The notes under the pieces were generated by a model. That model was given only the letters and a program-made list of their open reading frames with translations, searched no databases and was not told the origin of the DNA. The position numbers and the translations under genes are program-made. DNA of 63,928 nt, filler included, from Collodictyon triciliatum (lineage: Eukaryota): NCBI GenBank assembly GCA_043381765.1. It is 4 parts of 4 records of this genome, joined end to end, with 100 filler letters (N's around TTAATTAATTAA, not from the genome) between each part and the next. Parts side by side here need not be neighbours in the genome. Positions count along the whole stretch, not along the records: positions 1 to 16,826 come from JBHJMP010001512.1; 3 more parts are not named here. The stretch is one strand, 5' to 3'. This document shows, one piece after another, positions 12,808 through 57,150 of this stretch (its first letter is position 1; every line of letters starts with the position of its first letter).

Positions 12808-15800
12808 ATGGCACGTCCGTTTTCACGACCCTTATTGCATTCAACCCTTGTTCTTCTGGTCTCTCGCTTTGTGTGGTCGTTGCCTTTGGAAGGCCGTGAT
12901 CTGCCTACTGGCGAAATAGGATTTGCCTTCGAGCCGCAACTCCCTCTTTCTCCAACCACGCAGGTAACTTCCTCCTTTTATTTCAAGGACCTTTTGTTTT
13001 TTGGTCTGGAAAATCACCGTGGAAAACTCGCATGCTACGAAGAGGTACACGTGTACCGAAAGCGCGGGAGTCGGTTCAGCTGGCTGCAAGGCTGGCATTC
13101 ATGCGAGCCTCAAGTCTCTTCAGAAAATATACAAGATGTTTTAGACCCGCAACGCCAGGGGACTGTTGTGCGAAGAGGCTTTGGTTCGTCCATTTCAGCT
13201 TCTGTGGGGATTCTCGTCATAGGCTCTCCAACAGAAAGAGCGGACGAAAATGCTTCATTTGGCGTCGTAGATATTTACGAGATATCGAGCCGGGGGACAT
13301 TCACTCATGCTATTCTGTTGGTGAATCCTTGCAATTGCGAAAATGGGATGTTTGGGGTCTCCGTGGCTATAGATGAATCGGTTTTGGTCGTCGGCGCAAC
13401 CTCGGTTGTGTCAGATGTTAACCATGCAGAAAATCAACCTGGAATGGCTTTCGTCTTTTTCAAGATTGATAGCTACCATTGGCTACTTGTGGAGAAGATA
13501 AGTCCGCCTCATTTTTCCATGGATATTAATTTCGGAGTTTCAATGGCGTTAAAATATCCTCACTTGTGGATTTCCTCGCCGGATACCGAGGTAGAAGGGC
13601 ACGAAAGAGTTGGTATTGTATACAGCTATTTAATGAATAATCAATCAGGTTCTGTTATGCGTGGTTCAAAAACATTTCGGGTTCCAATTCCGATGGGTCA
13701 ATTTGGGTTAAGTATCTCAATGTATTCTACAACTCTCTTATTGGTGAAGTCAAATATCGGAATTCACATTGTAAGCCCAAAACTGTGGAATGACACAGAT
13801 CACTCGAAAATTATGACGATATTCAAAAACTGGAATTTGTTTTCCATGATAGACGACAACAACATCCTATATGGCGTTGCACACTATCAGGATGAATCAC
13901 ATCCGATAGGAATATACTCTATAAAAGGTATTTATACCCCAGGTCTTGATTTATATTCACATATATACATAAGTGTAATCACTCTGAATATCATTTTGAA
14001 AAAAATAAAGTAACATAAAAAACACATTTCTATAGGCAGTACTGAGGAAACGCCCATAGTTCCTTTAGACAGTTACAGTAATATTATAAAGAATTTCTGT
14101 ATTGGTGAATTGGAGGCAGGACAAATCCTTGCTATCCGCATCGCAATTCCCAAATTCGAACAGATGGCAGGATACTTTGCCATGGAAAATACACACATAG
14201 GCCCATGTGAAGTTTCAATTAATCACAATAATTCTATTTCTCAAATTCACAGGACTGTTCAAAACATGAGAAAAGTAAGGACTCCTAATATGATTATACC
14301 CGATACATCAACGAACACCAGCAATCATTTTTCTGAGACAGAGTTTGTGGTTGAAAATAAGAATGGACAGAAAAAGTTGAAAATATGTCTTGTTTTCTTT
14401 TACCCCCAAACAAAAAATATGAAGATATTGCATGATTACTACCACATGAAAATAGGAAGACGTAGTTTTGAATTAAAAGGAAGCCAGTTTGAATCAGAAT
14501 ACCCTGGAAAGTTTAATGACATCCACTCGTGGAGATGTTTTACCGGTGAAAAAAAGAGACCTTGTCTTTACTCTGACGGGTCTCTCCTTAAAATAAGACC
14601 TGAAGCAAGAGCTAAAATTAAACAAACACCAGAAAGATACCTTTTGTTTGGAAGTTATACATTTGAATATTGTCTAATATCAAAAGCTCGTACTTTACTT
14701 GCTGGCTGCACTAAAAAAACCGTTGATGTGGAGGATGCCGACCTATATCCTATATACATAGTTATTAGCAAGCCCTCTCCTCTCTCTTACGACAATAGCA
14801 TTATCCTTACAGTAAACAACCCAAATGAAATACGTAATCTTACTACCCAATTATTTTGGAGACAAATGGCAAATAATCTAAGTTTGATTAACGATGGGCC
14901 AGACAGTGACAGAAAGCCATATACCCTGATTGAAGATAAGGCGAGTATCCCCCTATACTCTATTATGAATGAGGACCAAACAATAGAGGTATTATCCACT
15001 CGTGTTGATTCAGAAAAGATTGCAGGATACTCGAAAATAACCATACCAAGTATGCATCTCGACGTGAAAGGTTTCCTGGAAATCAGTCCAGCTTCAATCA
15101 GGCCACTTCATGAAATGATAGTATGTTTCGAACATACTCAGCGAAAACCGACCGCACAGTACTCGTATTCATTCGGATTCTCCCCGAGTGCTAGATGGCC
15201 TATTATGTACACACAACTAGATTCGTATTCAGAGTGTGTGTCCATGTTTGCTCCTATTTTAACATGCGATAAAGAGAATTACACAAAGGAAAACAACGTA
15301 TGCAATATAGACGTTTTCGTTAAGGTTTCAAATAATGAAGGGAGGCATACCACCTTTTACAAGACACTCACAATAAGCAATGAGAGCAGCCTGGATAATT
15401 ATAAAATGAAGAATATCTGTAAGGAAGCCATAGCGTCAAATAGGAACTTACTTGCAGACACACTCAATATTAGTAATGGACGCTCTTTGGGACTCTTAAC
15501 TGCTATTTTATCAAGTCTCATCATCGCCGAGAAAACAGACAAGTATGAGGCACCTGTCAACCATAAGGACACAGAATTACTCTTAGACCTTCTTCAGCAA
15601 ATGCAACTGTTATACGGCAAGAGGCAAATCCGAAACTATGCGACTAAGAATTTCGCCTTCGCGCAACTGGACCTTTTACAAGAGTTCATGAAAAGTAATT
15701 CTGAATTCAGTATTAGCGGAATCTGTGCGGGATTATTTGCACTTACTCGCAGCTTACACGGTTTTTTTCATTTTCATCTTCATTTTCATCTTCATTTTCA

Positions 15801-16385
15801 TTTTCATTTTCATTTTCATTTTCATGAATATATGAAACCATTTATTTTGCCCGCCTTGATATATATGTCCTCTGAACATTTCTATTTTATTTCATAGAGA
15901 ACTTTGGGGTCGAGAACGAATCTACTAGAGACGAGGCGAATGATTTGGAGCTATCATTACATGAATGTAGAGTAAGGCATTCCACGGGAACTATTGGCAG
16001 AAGATATGCCAACAAAGCAATCAGATATTACCAGAGGCAAGACCCCGGCCAGGACTCGCAGTCAGCAAACCGTCGCACTTTCTTCTCGAAAGTCACATTT
16101 ATTTCCCTTGACCAAGTCATGTCCTTTACAACATTATTTGGTATCGTACTGATTGTGGGTCTATGTGGATTCTTTACTCGCGTTTTTCGACGGAATCGCC
16201 GTAATATAATCACACCATTTGGGACTGCGGCTGGCCCCACACAAAGCGGCTTCGAGTTTCAGGACATTGTTTATTCCGGGTCATTTAACTCGCAGCCTAC
16301 AACCCGTCAGATGCACAGCTACAACCACAGCCCACAAAACAAAGCCGCTACCGACTCCAAAAAGTACATGTCTAACCCTGAATGA
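12808..16385 (+). CDS. Type I membrane protein (~1,110 aa): signal peptide, FG-GAP-like repeats, REJ-like segment, TM followed by GFFTR (exons 12808-13927, 14036-15760, 15898-16385)
   Basis: Two GT-AG introns join three ORFs in frame (3,333 nt). Hydrophobic N-terminus; repeats FGSSISASVGILVIGSP, FGVSVAIDESVLVVGAT, FGVSMALKYPHLWISSP, FGLSISMYSTTLLV; TM FTTLFGIVLIVGLCGFF followed by basic TRVFRRNRR. Confidence 0.8.
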
Positions 16386-16785
16386 ACAGCATCATCATAG
16401 CCTTCTATATTCTTTACAATTTCTTTTCTAGTTTCTCTGCCAAGTGCACTGAGGTTTTATTTTATTTTTTTATTTTTAGCTTTGGGAAAAAAAAGAAAAA
16501 AGAAGCTCACGCCATATTCGCTCCTATTTAACAATAAATCGAAGTCTGGGTGATTTTTTTTTTTTTTGCCAGTCTGCTCTTGTCCGTCTGCTGGGCTTGT
16601 TGATGAAAGTTTGGGAATCATAGGAATCGAAGGCAATCTTTCCTTTCAAGTTGCCTTTATTCCTTTTTTTTTTTTTTTTTTATTTTTTTGGAACAGTTCC
16701 ACGTCGCTTTTGTAAAATTTAAAGAGTTCTGCGCGCTCTTTGTGTTTTATCTTGAAATGTTCCAGGTGCATGGATAACACACATG

Positions 16786-16826
<41 letters not shown>

Positions 16827-16926
16827 NNNNNNNNNNNNNNNNNNNNNNNNNNNNNNNNNNNNNNNNNNNNTTAATTAATTAANNNNNNNNNNNNNNNNNN
16901 NNNNNNNNNNNNNNNNNNNNNNNNNN
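16827..16926. other. Artificial scaffold-joining spacer (N44-TTAATTAATTAA-N44)
   Basis: Exactly 100 bp; the palindromic 12-mer gives stops in all six frames; identical structure at three sites. Confidence 0.97.
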
Positions 16927-25176: not shown

Positions 25177-28117
25177 TTATTCTTTGGCCAGCGACGACAG
25201 TGCATCCTTGGCAGAAGGCTCGCCCTTCGAAGCGGCCTCTGCATAGAGTCGTCGGATCTCCTTGTTGCGGGTCAAAATGTTCAAGGAGCGGGAAGAGGCA
25301 TAGACTTGGGCCAACAGGGACATTGCTTCTGGGAGCTGGGACTTGACAGCAGCTTTAAGGTGATTTGCCGCTTTGGATGGGCTCTTTTCCACCCCAATCC
25401 CGCGAAGATAGCAGTTACCCAGGTAATAATGGCCCATGGGCTCATCAGCGTTTGCGGATTCGTTATACCAGCGGAAGGCACTGATGCTGTCCTGCTGAGT
25501 CCCTTGGCCGTGGCGATGCATTTCACCGAGCATGCTGTACAACCTGCTGTCCTTGTACTGGGCAGCCGTGTTCAGGTAGCGGTAGGCCTCGTCCTGGTTA
25601 GATTCCACCAAATTGTGGTAGATGGCATACAAAAGAGTGGATTCGGCTTTGTTGTCTTCCTTTTGTTCGGCTTGCAGTTCATCCAGCAACTCTCGCGCCT
25701 CTGCCTTGTCGCGCTCAGTTACATAGATAAGTAGGCTCATTAAGTTTATGCGCTCATCTGTCTCACTGACAGGCAAAGAAGCCGGATGGATGTAGTATAA
25801 TAGCCACAGGTTCAAAACGGCGACAATCATGGTGGGTTTGATGGAAAGCATGGTATGCAGTAGCTTTCGGCACAAGGCATAGTCTTGTTGACGGAAGTAT
25901 GAAAACAGGTACATAAACTGTTTACGAACAGAGCCTCCAGTGGGAAGATTGGTAAACTTCTTTGAGTTACTCAACAAGAAATGCAGGCGCCATGCGAATT
26001 CGTCACCGGTGACGGTCAGCGCCTGCTCATTTGTTGCTGCTGTCATGTCCTGTTGGGACCGCACCGGAAGCCCAAAAGACCGTTGCTTCTGAGCCAGACT
26101 GGAGGCTTCGTTCATTTCCGCCGCATCCGTGTAGTATTCGCTCTGGACATCCAAAGAACGCAATGAACCAGAGCTGTAGCGCCGAGCATTTGTGTACTCG
26201 CTGTCTGCTGTGGAGGCCACGCTCTTTAGGAAACTCGATGTTGGAGTCCCAAACGTCCCACCTTCTCCAGGGCCAACTTCCTCATTCCCACGGCTGGACA
26301 CGAGCTGTGTTGCCATGTTGCCACTGGACCCGCGCTGTCTGCCCGTGACTCCGGCCCCTTGGTCAGAGCGAAGAATCTTGATCTGGGTCTCAAGCTCATT
26401 GATGGAGCGCTGTGATTCTTGTCGATGAACTTGAATCTGGATAGTCTGCTGCTCCACCTGGTGTCTGAGGTCTCGGTCAGCGGCTTGCAAGTTACCGCAC
26501 AATTGGGTCAGTTGCTGAGAAGCGCGGATAGCGGCATCCTTCTCGGACGTGAGGGTGCTGATTTTGTGCTTCAAGGCAGCAATCTCCTCTTGCAACTGGG
26601 CCACTTTGCCTTTGGCATTCGGGGCCGCTTGGCTATGGGCACTCTCATCGCTCAGCTTCTTGCGGGCCTCTTCAAGCTCCTGCTGAATCTGCGCCTTCTC
26701 GCTCTTGACCAGAGCTATGGTTTCCTTCAGCTGCTCGTTCTCCCTAACAGCTTCCTCAAGCTGGCGGGTGAGAGCTTCAGTGGCGGCTTGGGCCTGAGAC
26801 ACCTTTTCAAGATCGAGAGCACGTGTGGATTGCTGTTTGTGGTGATGCTCCATCTCGGCCAACTTTGCACTCAGCTCAGAGTTGATTGCCTGCTGCTTGG
26901 CCAGCTCCTTTTGGGCCTGAGCAGCAGCCTCTTCGTTGGCCTTTGCCACGCGTTCAGTCTGCTCAAGCAGATTCTTGAGGCTTTGTGCATCCCCATCTTC
27001 GGCTTGCTTCTTGAGCGACAGGGCAACCGACTCTTGTGTGAGCCTGCTAACCTCATCCTGGTATTGACTGCGCTGCTGCTCGAGCACAATCGCGTTGTCC
27101 TCCAGATGTTTTCGCAGATCCATCTCGATGGCCCGCTGCTGCTCGAGGGCTGTACGGAGTTTGGCCGAGCCTGCCTTCTCCTGGTCACACTCTCGGGTTG
27201 CTGCGTCTTTGGCTAGCTGCAACTGCATGGTCAGTTCCTGAAGCGTGCCTATCTCGGCAAGCAGCTTCTGAGTCTTGTCCTGCGCCGAGGCCAAACTCAG
27301 CTTCTGGCGCAAGGACTCAGCCTCTTGACTGGATTGTTCCAACTGCACGCGAAGTCGTCCGCTTTCTCGCTGCGCCTCGTCTGCTTTGGCATTTGCCGCA
27401 ATCAGCTGCGTGTTGAGCTCCTCAGTGGCGCGCTCGGCCTGCTCGATCTGCCTGTGGCTCTCGTTCTCGGGCCCACGGGCCGCCAGAGCCTCTTTCAGCT
27501 TGTGCTCAAGGTCTTCTTTGTCTCGCTCCAGCTGCGAAATCTCTTCCTTCTTTTGCCCAAAGGCCTCTCGGGCTTCCAGCAGTCGGCTCTTGACGCTCTT
27601 CTCGGCTGCTGCCTTGGATTCCCACTGGCCGTATGCCGCAACGTACAGCCTCTTGAGAAAGCTAACCTCATCGGGGAGCTCTCCAGACGCCGGGTACGCC
27701 TTCATGAGCTCCTGCTCGTTCATCCTAGAGCGCTAATGTACACAATCACTTGTTTTTTGTTTCATTTTTTGTTTGTTTTTCCTTTTCTTTTCTTTCTCTT
27801 TTTTTTTTTTCTCTTTTTCTCTCTCTCTCAATGCACGCTACATGGCTCGTTAATGTTACTTCTCACTTGCTCTGATCTCTTCGAAAGGCTTTGTGTGCTG
27901 TGGCAGGAGACTGTGAAATCAGAGGTCGTTCAAATACCCCATGTGTTATGGATGTTTCCCTAACCGGGTAATCAATCTGCGTTCTTAGTTGGCATTTAGA
28001 GAAAGAGACCTGTGTGGGTGTACCAGGAGCTATTGAGTTCATAAATGAATAACCAAACTCCGACATGAAGGCCAAATCTGGATAAAGCTCTGAATGAAGT
28101 GCAATTTGCGTAATCAT
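25177..28117 (-). CDS. Long coiled-coil protein with C-terminal Sel1-like repeats (exons ~27867-28117 and 25177-27724)
   Basis: 848-aa ORF with an E/Q/K/L/A-rich heptad region; LGEMHRHGQGTQQDSISAFRWYNESA and LGNCYLRGIGVEKSPSKAANHLKAA fit the Sel1 consensus. The upstream ORF splices in frame (AA|G ATG) across GT-AG intron 27725-27866; start codon uncertain. Confidence 0.85.
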
Positions 28118-28480: not shown

Positions 28481-28674
28481 AAAAAAAAAAAGCCAGAAAA
28501 AAAACAACACAAAAATCGAAAAAGTACATCTTCGAACAAATAAACTCATAAACTCTGCGCCAACCATTTCTCGAGACACTAAACGCCCGATTGCGCATCT
28601 TACGCAGCCATTCTCGCACACTGCCGCAACTGGAAGGGAGAGACAACCGAAACAAAAGCACAGAAGAGAACGAC

Positions 28675-29184
28675 ATGGCCAACCCAGAAACGCAAAGCAC
28701 CGGCGAGCCCAGCCTTCTTGTACCAGAAACATTCGAGAGTGAGGCTTTGCTCTTTGAAGGGACAGTCATCCACGGGTTCGGCCGGGGCTCCAAGCAGCTG
28801 GGAATCCCCACGGCAAACCTGGGAGTGGACCAAGAGCCGCGGGTGCAGTCTCCCGATTTCCGCACAGGCATCTACCTTGGGTGGGCCACGCTGGATCGCA
28901 AAGGCCCCGTTTATCCCATGGTCATGAGCATCGGCTGGAATCCGTTCTACCGCAACACCGTCAAGACCATGGAGGCGCACCTGATTCATCAATTCGATCA
29001 GGACTTCTACGGCGTGCATCTGCGCCTCTGCGTCGTGGGTTATCTCCGTCCAGAGCGAGACTTTACCTCCTTGGAGGCCCTGATCGACGCTATCAAGCTG
29101 GACATCCGCTCCACTGAAGCCGCGCTCAAGACTCCCGGCCTGGCGCAGACAGCCTCCCATGCTTTCCTTGTCGATCCGCAATGA
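28675..29184 (+). CDS. RFK: Riboflavin kinase (monofunctional, intronless)
   Basis: GFGRGSKQLGIPTANL, GIYLGWA, MVMSIGWNPFY, EAHLIHQFDQDFYG, GYLRPERDFTSLEALIDAI. Confidence 0.97.
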   Translation: MANPETQSTGEPSLLVPETFESEALLFEGTVIHGFGRGSKQLGIPTANLGVDQEPRVQSPDFRTGIYLGWATLDRKGPVYPMVMSIGWNPFYRNTVKTMEAHLIHQFDQDFYGVHLRLCVVGYLRPERDFTSLEALIDAIKLDIRSTEAALKTPGLAQTASHAFLVDPQ

Positions 29185-33705: not shown

Positions 33706-33805
33706 NNNNNNNNNNNNNNNNNNNNNNNNNNNNNNNNNNNNNNNNNNNNTTAATTAATTAANNNNNNNNNNNNNNNNNNNNNNNNNNNNNNNNNNNNNNN
33801 NNNNN
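33706..33805. other. Artificial scaffold-joining spacer
   Basis: Same 100-bp N44-TTAATTAATTAA-N44 structure. Confidence 0.97.
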
Positions 33806-50558: not shown

Positions 50559-50658
50559 NNNNNNNNNNNNNNNNNNNNNNNNNNNNNNNNNNNNNNNNNN
50601 NNTTAATTAATTAANNNNNNNNNNNNNNNNNNNNNNNNNNNNNNNNNNNNNNNNNNNN
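50559..50658. other. Artificial scaffold-joining spacer
   Basis: Same 100-bp structure. Confidence 0.97.
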
Positions 50659-56027: not shown

Positions 56028-57150
56028 TCAGCAGGATGGCGTTCTGATGGCCTGGTCGAACTGCACAGCCACAGTGGCCAGGAAGGAGAGCATCGAAGCA
56101 TTAGAGCATTCATCATCGGATGAAAAGGATGGCGTAAGGGGTGTGATGGGTGTGGAGATGCGAGGAGACATGGCAAGGCCCGGACGTTGCAAGGACGCCG
56201 CGAGGGTCGAATTCGGTGGGTTTTCAATGACAGGGTAAGGCTTCTCGTCAGTCGTGGATGCGGCTGAAAATTCGCTTGGCTGGTGGGCAAGAGCCTCGCG
56301 CTGCCTCTCCTGCATATAGCGTGTGCGGCACTGGATGTCAGTGCGTCCGTTAACGTGGCGTGAGACAAGCGACCAGGCTTTGGTGCCGTACATGTCGACA
56401 GCCTCGTTGAGCAGCTTTATCTCGTGGTCGAGCCATACCCCTGGTGACATTGTAATGAATGGTGAGGACGGGATAGCGAGCAGATTTCCTTGCGTTGCAT
56501 GAATTGAATGGATGCAAGGTGATTTTCTACCTTTGCGGATGGTAGGATTCAGCGTACGAGACCAGCGTTGTGAGCACTGTTCGGCTGAGCGGTAGTACGT
56601 GCCATTGGAGCGTTGTGTGATAAACTTCGAGATTTCAACCCAGCACAAGTTCAGCCTGAGTTTTTTTTTTTTTTTAGAAAGTGTTATGCAGTGCCTGAGA
56701 CAATGTAGTCAGAGGGGGCACAAAGGGTGGATTGTAAATTGGTCATTCAGAATCGACGTTCTTCTTTTTTTTTTTTTGGTGGGGTGCTTGAGGAAAAGAT
56801 TTACATGACACCCTCAGCGAGGAGTTCGTCTTCTTCGCGCGTCCATGAGTTGACATTCTTTCGTCTGCAATATAGAGAGCATGATCAGTTATTTTTCTAT
56901 CGTGCTGGTTCTAACTTCTGATTTGAAAGCCGGTTCTGTGGTATGGTGTGATATTGCCTGTTCGCCTTACTTTGTGTATGAGACGTTCGCGAGCTGCAGC
57001 GGACAAGGAGAGCGGGGCGAATCAATTTCCTCCGGTCGACTGAGAGGGGAGAAGCTGTGGCGAGTGAGTGGACGCGAGTCGACTTTGGTGAAGGCCTTCG
57101 GCTAGAGTAGGGAAGAATATTATCAGTCTGGACTGAAATCTGTGGTGTTC
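56028..57150 (-). CDS. Two-repeat MYB transcription factor; 5' exon boundaries uncertain
   Basis: WTREEDELLAEGVM|LNLCWVEISK...RSAEQCSQRWSRTLNPTIRKG|VWLDHEIKLL..YGTKAWSLVSRHVNGRTDIQCRTRY. Confidence 0.9.

Follow-up and report, generated by a model that had tools for sequence, protein, structure and literature searches.

A predicted type I surface protein of Collodictyon triciliatum with an FG-GAP_2-type propeller and a GFFxR core, integrin-alpha-like in layout and probably not an integrin alpha

A three-exon gene in a stretch of DNA from the protist Collodictyon triciliatum (assembly GCA_043381765.1; 63,928 nucleotides including filler, hereafter the window) encodes a protein that combines an FG-GAP-type propeller, a long extracellular stalk, one transmembrane (TM) helix ending in GFFTR and a short cytoplasmic tail. 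In this head-stalk-anchor layout, and in the superfamily to which its propeller belongs, the protein is reminiscent of integrin alpha chains. It nevertheless seems rather likely to us that it is not an integrin alpha, but a lineage-specific type I receptor involved in adhesion or prey recognition. An earlier note on this DNA had left the choice between a divergent relative of integrin alpha and a convergent adhesion receptor. The second arm fits an FG-GAP-type propeller on a type I protein of a protist. Membership of the integrin alpha family, on the other hand, is unsupported: calcium loops, the lysine of the juxtamembrane motif and an Integrin_alpha2 leg are missing from what was detected, the head is nearer to FG-GAP_2 proteins, and the stalk is an orphan.

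The gene can be compared with contigs of the sequencing runs here called X1 to X4, the first two from one study and the last two from freshwater and subsurface metagenomes. Its parts are the following:

12808-16385, plus strand: the gene, three exons, 3333 nucleotides coding for 1110 amino acids, no internal stop
12769-12807, plus strand: 5' untranslated part (minimum extent), an X1 complementary DNA (cDNA) contig beginning at 12769
12808-13927, plus strand: exon 1, with the ATG, a putative signal peptide and about six propeller blades (amino acids ~36-373); X1 contigs are colinear over 12769-13927
13928-14035, plus strand: intron 1, 108 nucleotides, GT..AG, 24% GC, removed by splicing in X1 contig record 2, still present in X2 record 8
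14036-15760, plus strand: exon 2, amino acids 374-948, with the probable last blade and the orphan extracellular stalk
15761-15897, plus strand: intron 2, 137 nucleotides, GT..AG, removed by splicing in X1 contig record 4
15898-16385, plus strand: exon 3, with the end of the ectodomain, the TM helix, the tail and the TGA stop; X1 and X2 contigs extend to 16449

The X1 contigs bear the primer ends of template-switch cDNA synthesis, and are thereby shown to be cDNA. Their junctions (13927 to 14037 and 15758 to 15897) match the modelled introns if one ambiguous base is allowed for, and apart from these junctions their colinearity with the window holds over 12769-16449. The introns have a GC content of 24-25%, against 38-46% in the exons. 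An in-frame stop is found upstream, at 12772-12774, with no ATG in frame between it and the start codon at 12808. The spliced product of about 1,110 amino acids given in the earlier note is therefore borne out, both by the GT..AG borders and by X1 cDNA that joins across both introns. X1 and X2 diverge from the window by 1-2%, and therefore derive from close relatives or from other strains. Forty differences were listed, together with a letter at the joint, and there are 16 further ones; 39 of those listed are coding, with 19 synonymous and 20 non-synonymous changes over 719 and 2611 sites, respectively, which corresponds to a ratio of non-synonymous to synonymous rates (dN/dS) of about 0.3. 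Spliced cDNA and this ratio together establish that the gene is real, expressed and under purifying selection.

X2 contains a contig of 990 nucleotides (13572-14561) that reads through intron 1 unspliced, and must therefore hold either genomic DNA or unprocessed pre-mRNA of a close relative. X3 and X4 provide short pieces of the gene (151-259 nucleotides, 0-4 differences), and freshwater metagenomes contain short pieces that are identical to it. In X1, R20 (window 12865), which lies midway along the putative signal peptide, is replaced by Cys, leaving the hydrophobic core uninterrupted, and the first base of exon 2 (14036) reads A, which gives G374D. Intron 2 contains a (CATTTT)n / (CATCTT) microsatellite at 15770-15830, which was skipped as a repeat in read mapping.

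The protein starts with a putative signal peptide, judged by eye (amino acids 1 to ~26, MARPFSRPLLHSTLVLLVSRFVWS), followed by the propeller. Pfam FG-GAP_2 (PF14312) is recognized in 2 stretches, with an E-value of 9.6e-8 and 32.5 bits against a cutoff of 23, the best stretch being amino acids 181-217. Neither FG-GAP (PF01839) nor Integrin_alpha2 was found in the Pfam scan at E up to 10, so that the families named earlier for such a scan are represented by FG-GAP_2, above its cutoff, and not by the other two. With a profile built from 68 repeats of six database relatives of the head, four repeats are recovered, in agreement with the claim of at least four FG-GAP-like repeats, the fourth being weak (iE, independent E-value):

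13180-13278, plus strand: FG-GAP_2 repeat 1, amino acids 125-157, FGSSISASVGILVIGSP..., repeat profile iE 1.1e-5
13342-13458, plus strand: FG-GAP_2 repeat 2, amino acids 179-217, repeat profile iE 8.1e-8
13480-13623, plus strand: FG-GAP_2 repeat 3, amino acids 225-272, repeat profile iE 4.5e-5
13699-13740, plus strand: FG-GAP_2 repeat 4, weak, amino acids 298-311, iE 0.04, with an FG...hydrophobic pattern visible in the translation

The calcium- or cation-loop patterns D-x-[DN]-x-[DN]-G and [DE]x[DN]x[DNS]G matched nowhere in the 1110 amino acids, and the spacers between FG and GAP hold no acidic cluster in the translation of exon 1; the earlier caveat that DxDxDG loops were not to be seen holds for the entire protein. 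In a search of 5.8 billion clusters, six of 4517 candidates turned out to be relatives of the head. All are long FG-GAP_2 proteins with 24-27% identity (E 3e-16 to 3e-4), aligning over 33-53% of the head, and they comprise multi-repeat proteins of prokaryotic (bacterial) type and one protein from Anaeramoeba ignava. Beyond these six no relative of exon 1 was found, though the collection searched includes transcripts of Diphylleia rotans. None of 1348 candidates among proteins of similar length was confirmed for the exon 1 product, nor any of 132 stretches with pattern matches in the JGI metagenomes. Searched singly against the sequences of the PDB, integrins included, the three exon products gave no match at E up to 10. 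The profile of the seven-sequence alignment matches integrin alpha-M, -L, -E and -X in the PDB, with E from 9e-8 to 1e-3, and is dominated by the bacterial proteins.

The AlphaFold2 model of the head, made for exon 1 only with the alignment of the six relatives, is all-beta with about six four-stranded blades (predicted local distance difference test, pLDDT, 55.7; predicted template modelling score, pTM, 0.63). A seventh blade would fall in exon 2, which was modelled alone at a pLDDT of 32.5. In a comparison with 48,161 representative chains by VIA-align, the top six are all propellers of integrin alpha chains (alpha4, alphaIIb, alphaL, alpha6 and alphaM), with Z of 24.5-22.1 over 293-306 residues, a root-mean-square deviation of 3.3-4.0 and 12-16% identity. 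NHL and other propellers follow from Z 21.4, a small margin of 1-3 units. The integrin ranking is that of VIA-align and not of Foldseek, which against the PDB gave generic six- to eight-bladed propellers (Kelch, GH93, WD40) at a template modelling score of ~0.5. The combined check by AlphaFold and Foldseek suggested in the earlier note hence yielded the predicted propeller fold and, from Foldseek, no integrin among the matches listed. Taken together, the repeat matches and the predicted fold identify the head as an FG-GAP-type propeller, kin of the integrin alpha heads at the level of the superfamily. Within this superfamily, as judged from its sequence, it belongs with the calcium-free FG-GAP_2 group rather than with the integrins.

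The opposite end of the protein consists of the membrane anchor and the tail:

16116-16175, plus strand: TM helix, amino acids ~1022-1041, the sole set of 19-residue windows with a mean hydropathy >1.6
16167-16181, plus strand: GFFTR at the predicted cytoplasmic face, then VFRRNRRN; GFF at amino acid 1039, preceding Cys at 16164-16166
16182-16382, plus strand: cytoplasmic tail, 67 amino acids, with a polybasic start, then rich in S/T/N/Q/P, with three Tyr

The anchor sequence is ...FGIVLIVGLCGFFTRVFRRNRRN..., in which the motif reads G-L-C-G-F-F-T-R. The core GFFxR is present, and the K of KxGFFxR, two residues before GFF, is replaced by L; no GxxxG is found in the TM helix. R1043 belongs to a group of five arginines within ten residues, the pattern to be expected if this is a positive-inside stop-transfer stretch. 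In relatives that are 95-99% identical, the GFFTR region is unchanged among the differences listed. The single C-terminal TM segment ending in CGFFTR and the tail of about 65 residues had both been read correctly from the sequence. Type I topology is supported by this one TM helix, by the polybasic stretch on its C-terminal side and by N-x-S/T sequons and Cys on its N-terminal side. A match of DUF3149 on the tail (E 0.04) is below cutoff, spans the TM helix only and was dismissed.

What an integrin alpha chain (ITGA) should look like is set out in a preprint by Kang et al. (10.1101/2020.04.29.069435). The canonical form has a seven-bladed propeller, Ig-like legs, a TM helix and KxGFFxR, while a non-animal ITGA is recognized by a membrane-docked propeller, some blades of which carry a cation motif, quoted as D/E-h-D/N-x-D/N-G-h-x-D/E. 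According to the same text, all amoebozoan ITGAs accepted carry at least one such motif, GFFKR is present in only one amoebozoan and in few non-animal ITGAs, and in Rigifila ramosa, a member of the CRuMs supergroup, a canonical integrin beta (ITGB) is reported and an ITGA was not found. For Capsaspora, sequences with three repeats, a TM helix and an adjacent KXGFFXR are described by Chouhan et al. 2011 (PMC3192720).

It could be imagined that the Collodictyon protein is a true, very divergent integrin alpha, pairing with an integrin beta of its host through the propeller and a clasp of TM helix and GFFxR, and that it represents the missing alpha partner of the CRuMs. We regard this as quite unlikely. 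It shares with the integrin alpha chains of Metazoa, Capsaspora, Thecamonas, breviates and some Amoebozoa a type I topology, a similar size, an N-terminal FG-GAP-type propeller whose best structural matches are integrin alpha heads, and a single TM helix with a short tail and the GFFxR core at the cytoplasmic face. The profile matches to four PDB integrins point in the same direction, as does a host that probably belongs to the CRuMs, given the beta chain without an alpha chain reported for Rigifila and the few non-animal ITGAs with GFFKR (10.1101/2020.04.29.069435). Unlike these chains, however, the Collodictyon protein has no calcium loops between FG and GAP, where every ITGA accepted in that text has at least one cation motif; its repeats are of PF14312 only and not of PF01839; no Integrin_alpha2 leg was detected, and the part of the stalk next to the membrane is probably helical, by a model of low confidence, and not Ig-like. 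Its LCGFFTR lacks the K of the full KxGFFxR, and its TM helix lacks GxxxG. Furthermore, at E up to 10 the protein on its own matches no PDB integrin, bacterial proteins are its nearest relatives and dominate the profile that does match, the Z margin over unrelated propellers is just 1-3 units, and apart from the six FG-GAP_2 proteins no relative turned up for the exon 1 or the exon 2 product, though the collection searched with exon 1 includes the Diphylleia rotans transcripts.

Between head and anchor extends a stalk of about 650 amino acids; the ectodomain contains 11 N-x-S/T sequons and 18 Cys. For the exon 2 product (574 amino acids), phmmer gave no match over 1.84 billion representatives, and neither a Pfam match at E up to 10 nor a PDB sequence match was found. 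In the JGI metagenomes, pattern matches occurred at 36 stretches, none of which was confirmed. Self-BLAST revealed no internal repeats in the stalk, and tblastn across the window found only the gene itself and no paralogue. As no relative of the exon 1 product beyond the six above, and none of the exon 2 product, was found in the collections searched, the protein either evolves fast or is confined to a narrow lineage. The single-sequence AlphaFold2 model of exon 2, at the pLDDT given above, does not allow the beta-rich part to be assessed. At its end it predicts a helical portion:

15397-15756, plus strand: membrane-proximal stalk, six predicted helices at low confidence, amino acids ~827-946 (residues 454-573 of the exon 2 product, pLDDT 36-46)

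If these helices are real, the final 120 amino acids encoded by exon 2 differ from calf-2 of integrins. The stalk had been called atypical in the earlier note, and this description stands: no Integrin_alpha2 match, no homologue among the representatives searched and, with low confidence, helices next to the membrane.

The only likeness of the stalk comes from a protein language model. Among ESM Atlas features, its nearest neighbours are clusters of the REJ domain, in 30 of the 30 best matches, with a top score of 0.95 and 210 of 256 features shared; with REJ clusters excluded, the best score drops to 0.77. The protein might hence be a receptor with an REJ module, of the kind of polycystin-1 or the sea-urchin egg-jelly receptor (suREJ), in which the FG-GAP_2 propeller serves as a sensing head and the function is sensory instead of adhesive. 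As in those receptors, a large extracellular module lies ahead of the membrane, and we take the helices ahead of the TM to resemble the helical part of a GAIN domain. The recognition value of the stalk, however, is 1743, below the level of 2300 given for known families, and for this reason the resemblance is weak evidence and is treated as a lead. The Pfam REJ model (PF02010) does not match the protein at E up to 10, phmmer finds nothing, the ~85 residues between helices and TM would not accommodate a GAIN beta-subdomain, and nothing like the HL(T/S) site of a GPS was seen by eye. The protein also has a single TM helix, without the multi-pass channel part of the polycystins. We therefore consider an REJ-type receptor unlikely. 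A literature search for the REJ domain together with FG-GAP yielded nothing related.

Another possibility is that the resemblance to integrins has been put together by chance. A bacterial-type FG-GAP_2 propeller, acquired or retained, would have been combined with a fast-evolving, lineage-specific anchor, and GFFTR would be nothing else than the hydrophobic end of a TM helix followed by a positive-inside cluster. The prokaryote-type, multi-repeat character of the best relatives of the head is in line with this idea, as are the position of R1043 within an arginine cluster and the presence of GFF.R in 1 of 133 other proteins compared. Likewise, the non-synonymous changes among the listed differences affect the stalk more often than the head. 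Identities of ~25%, however, name no donor, and the gene has spliceosomal introns and a host-like composition. We judge a chance mosaic to be very improbable as an account of its own; it overlaps with the reading as a lineage-specific receptor rather than excluding it.

Type I proteins with an FG-GAP_2 head are known from elsewhere. Anaeramoeba ignava KAJ5072874.1 likewise combines FG-GAP_2 repeats with a signal-like N-terminus, a C-terminal TM helix and a basic juxtamembrane stretch, but it has fn3 between propeller and TM helix and no GFFxR. This design therefore exists outside the integrin-bearing lineages. In FG-GAP_2 surface proteins, fn3, FlgD_ig, Laminin_G_3 or InlB-B-repeat domains are found behind the propeller, in contrast to the orphan stalk and the GFFTR of the Collodictyon protein. 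Integrin-type seven-bladed propellers of bacteria, regarded as relatives of the integrin head (Chouhan et al. 2011, PMC3192720), are FG-GAP propellers outside animals as well. Each of their blades carries a Ca2+ site, and a membrane anchor of eukaryotic type is absent, whereas the Collodictyon protein lacks Ca2+ sites and is encoded by a spliced eukaryotic gene.

The favoured reading, that of a lineage-specific type I receptor, can be pictured as follows. The host is a phagotrophic freshwater protist, probably a diphyllatean, and the product would be a lineage-restricted surface glycoprotein. Its calcium-free propeller of FG-GAP_2 type would serve as the ligand-binding head. The stalk, rich in Cys and in glycosylation sites and probably helical in its last 120 amino acids, would distance this head from the membrane. 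A single TM helix would anchor the protein, with the GFF end and the following TRVFRRNRRN setting the cytoplasmic boundary, and the tail of 67 amino acids would provide a link to sorting or signalling. Its likeliest role seems to be to attach the cell to a substrate or to recognize prey. The structure of the gene, its expression, the purifying selection, the FG-GAP_2 repeats, the fold of the propeller and the elements of topology are shown by the data above; the signal peptide, the surface location, the binding of a ligand and the role are inferred.

Several points weigh against this picture. The GFFxR core lies exactly at the boundary between TM helix and cytoplasm in a type I protein that has an FG-GAP head and about the size of an integrin, and a rough estimate puts the chance occurrence of a boundary GFFxR in such a protein at about one in a thousand. 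It is because of this low expectation that the integrin reading keeps a small share of our confidence despite the absent cation loops and the incomplete motif. In the structural comparison of the head, integrin alpha chains take all of the first six places, and another member of the CRuMs has an integrin beta, with no alpha found, according to 10.1101/2020.04.29.069435. Finally, the model of the head is of middling confidence and that of the stalk is useless.

The assignment of the host to a lineage relies on one neighbouring gene, upstream on the same contig:

9218-11005, minus strand: gene of at least two exons for a cation-diffusion-facilitator (Mn/Zn transporter), Cation_efflux E 6e-23, ZT_dimer E 6e-9

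Among 403 matches, the two best relatives of this transporter are transcripts of Diphylleia rotans (one with 57% identity, covering 84% of the query, the other with 66%, covering 44%), followed by an MMETSP protein (47%) and by MTPs of plants (~40%). This places the host, by sequence, probably in the Diphyllatea (collodictyonids), within the CRuMs. Literature searches found nothing that joins integrin with Collodictyon, and for integrin with Mantamonas, Diphyllatea or Rigifila only the preprint by Kang et al. was relevant.

At 2084-2945 (minus strand) and 6424-6951 (plus strand), the same contig also carries exon-sized open reading frames (ORFs) with matches to glutamate-cysteine ligase (GCS; E 1e-15 and 2e-9) and to acyl-CoA oxidase (E 1e-11), and it is interrupted by N gaps at 3904-4405, 7742-8201 and 11416-11425. 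The window consists of separate contigs in falling order of length; the pieces between the linkers measure 16826, 16779 and 16753 bases. The linkers, at 16827-16926, 33706-33805 and 50559-50658, each consist of 44 N, TTAATTAATTAA and 44 N, the insert being a six-frame stop. Because they join separate contigs, only positions 1-16826 are physically linked to the gene, and genes beyond are not its neighbours. On these unlinked contigs are found an ORF of 851 amino acids with Sel1 repeats (25180-27732, minus strand), a riboflavin kinase (28552-29181, plus strand, E 3e-36) and an ORF with a Myb domain (56031-56708, minus strand).

How integrins arose has yet to be settled, and in a CRuMs protist a canonical integrin beta was found, but no alpha chain (10.1101/2020.04.29.069435). 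A type I protein with an FG-GAP head and a GFFxR core, in a host that is probably a member of the CRuMs, is therefore a concrete and testable candidate for an integrin alpha. That the CRuMs have an integrin-like heterodimer whose missing alpha chain is this protein, kept in an FG-GAP_2 form without calcium and with a stalk that is not Ig-like, is in our opinion decidedly improbable. If it were so, an alpha/beta receptor with a GFFxR clasp would predate the split between CRuMs and Amorphea, and animal integrins would have gained their calcium loops and Ig legs later. If the protein is not an integrin, it documents an expressed design of surface receptor in a poorly known predatory flagellate, in which an FG-GAP_2 head is combined with a stalk that has no detectable relatives. 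In that case, it would also indicate that GFFxR can arise outside the integrins, which calls for caution when integrins of protists are identified on the basis of motifs.

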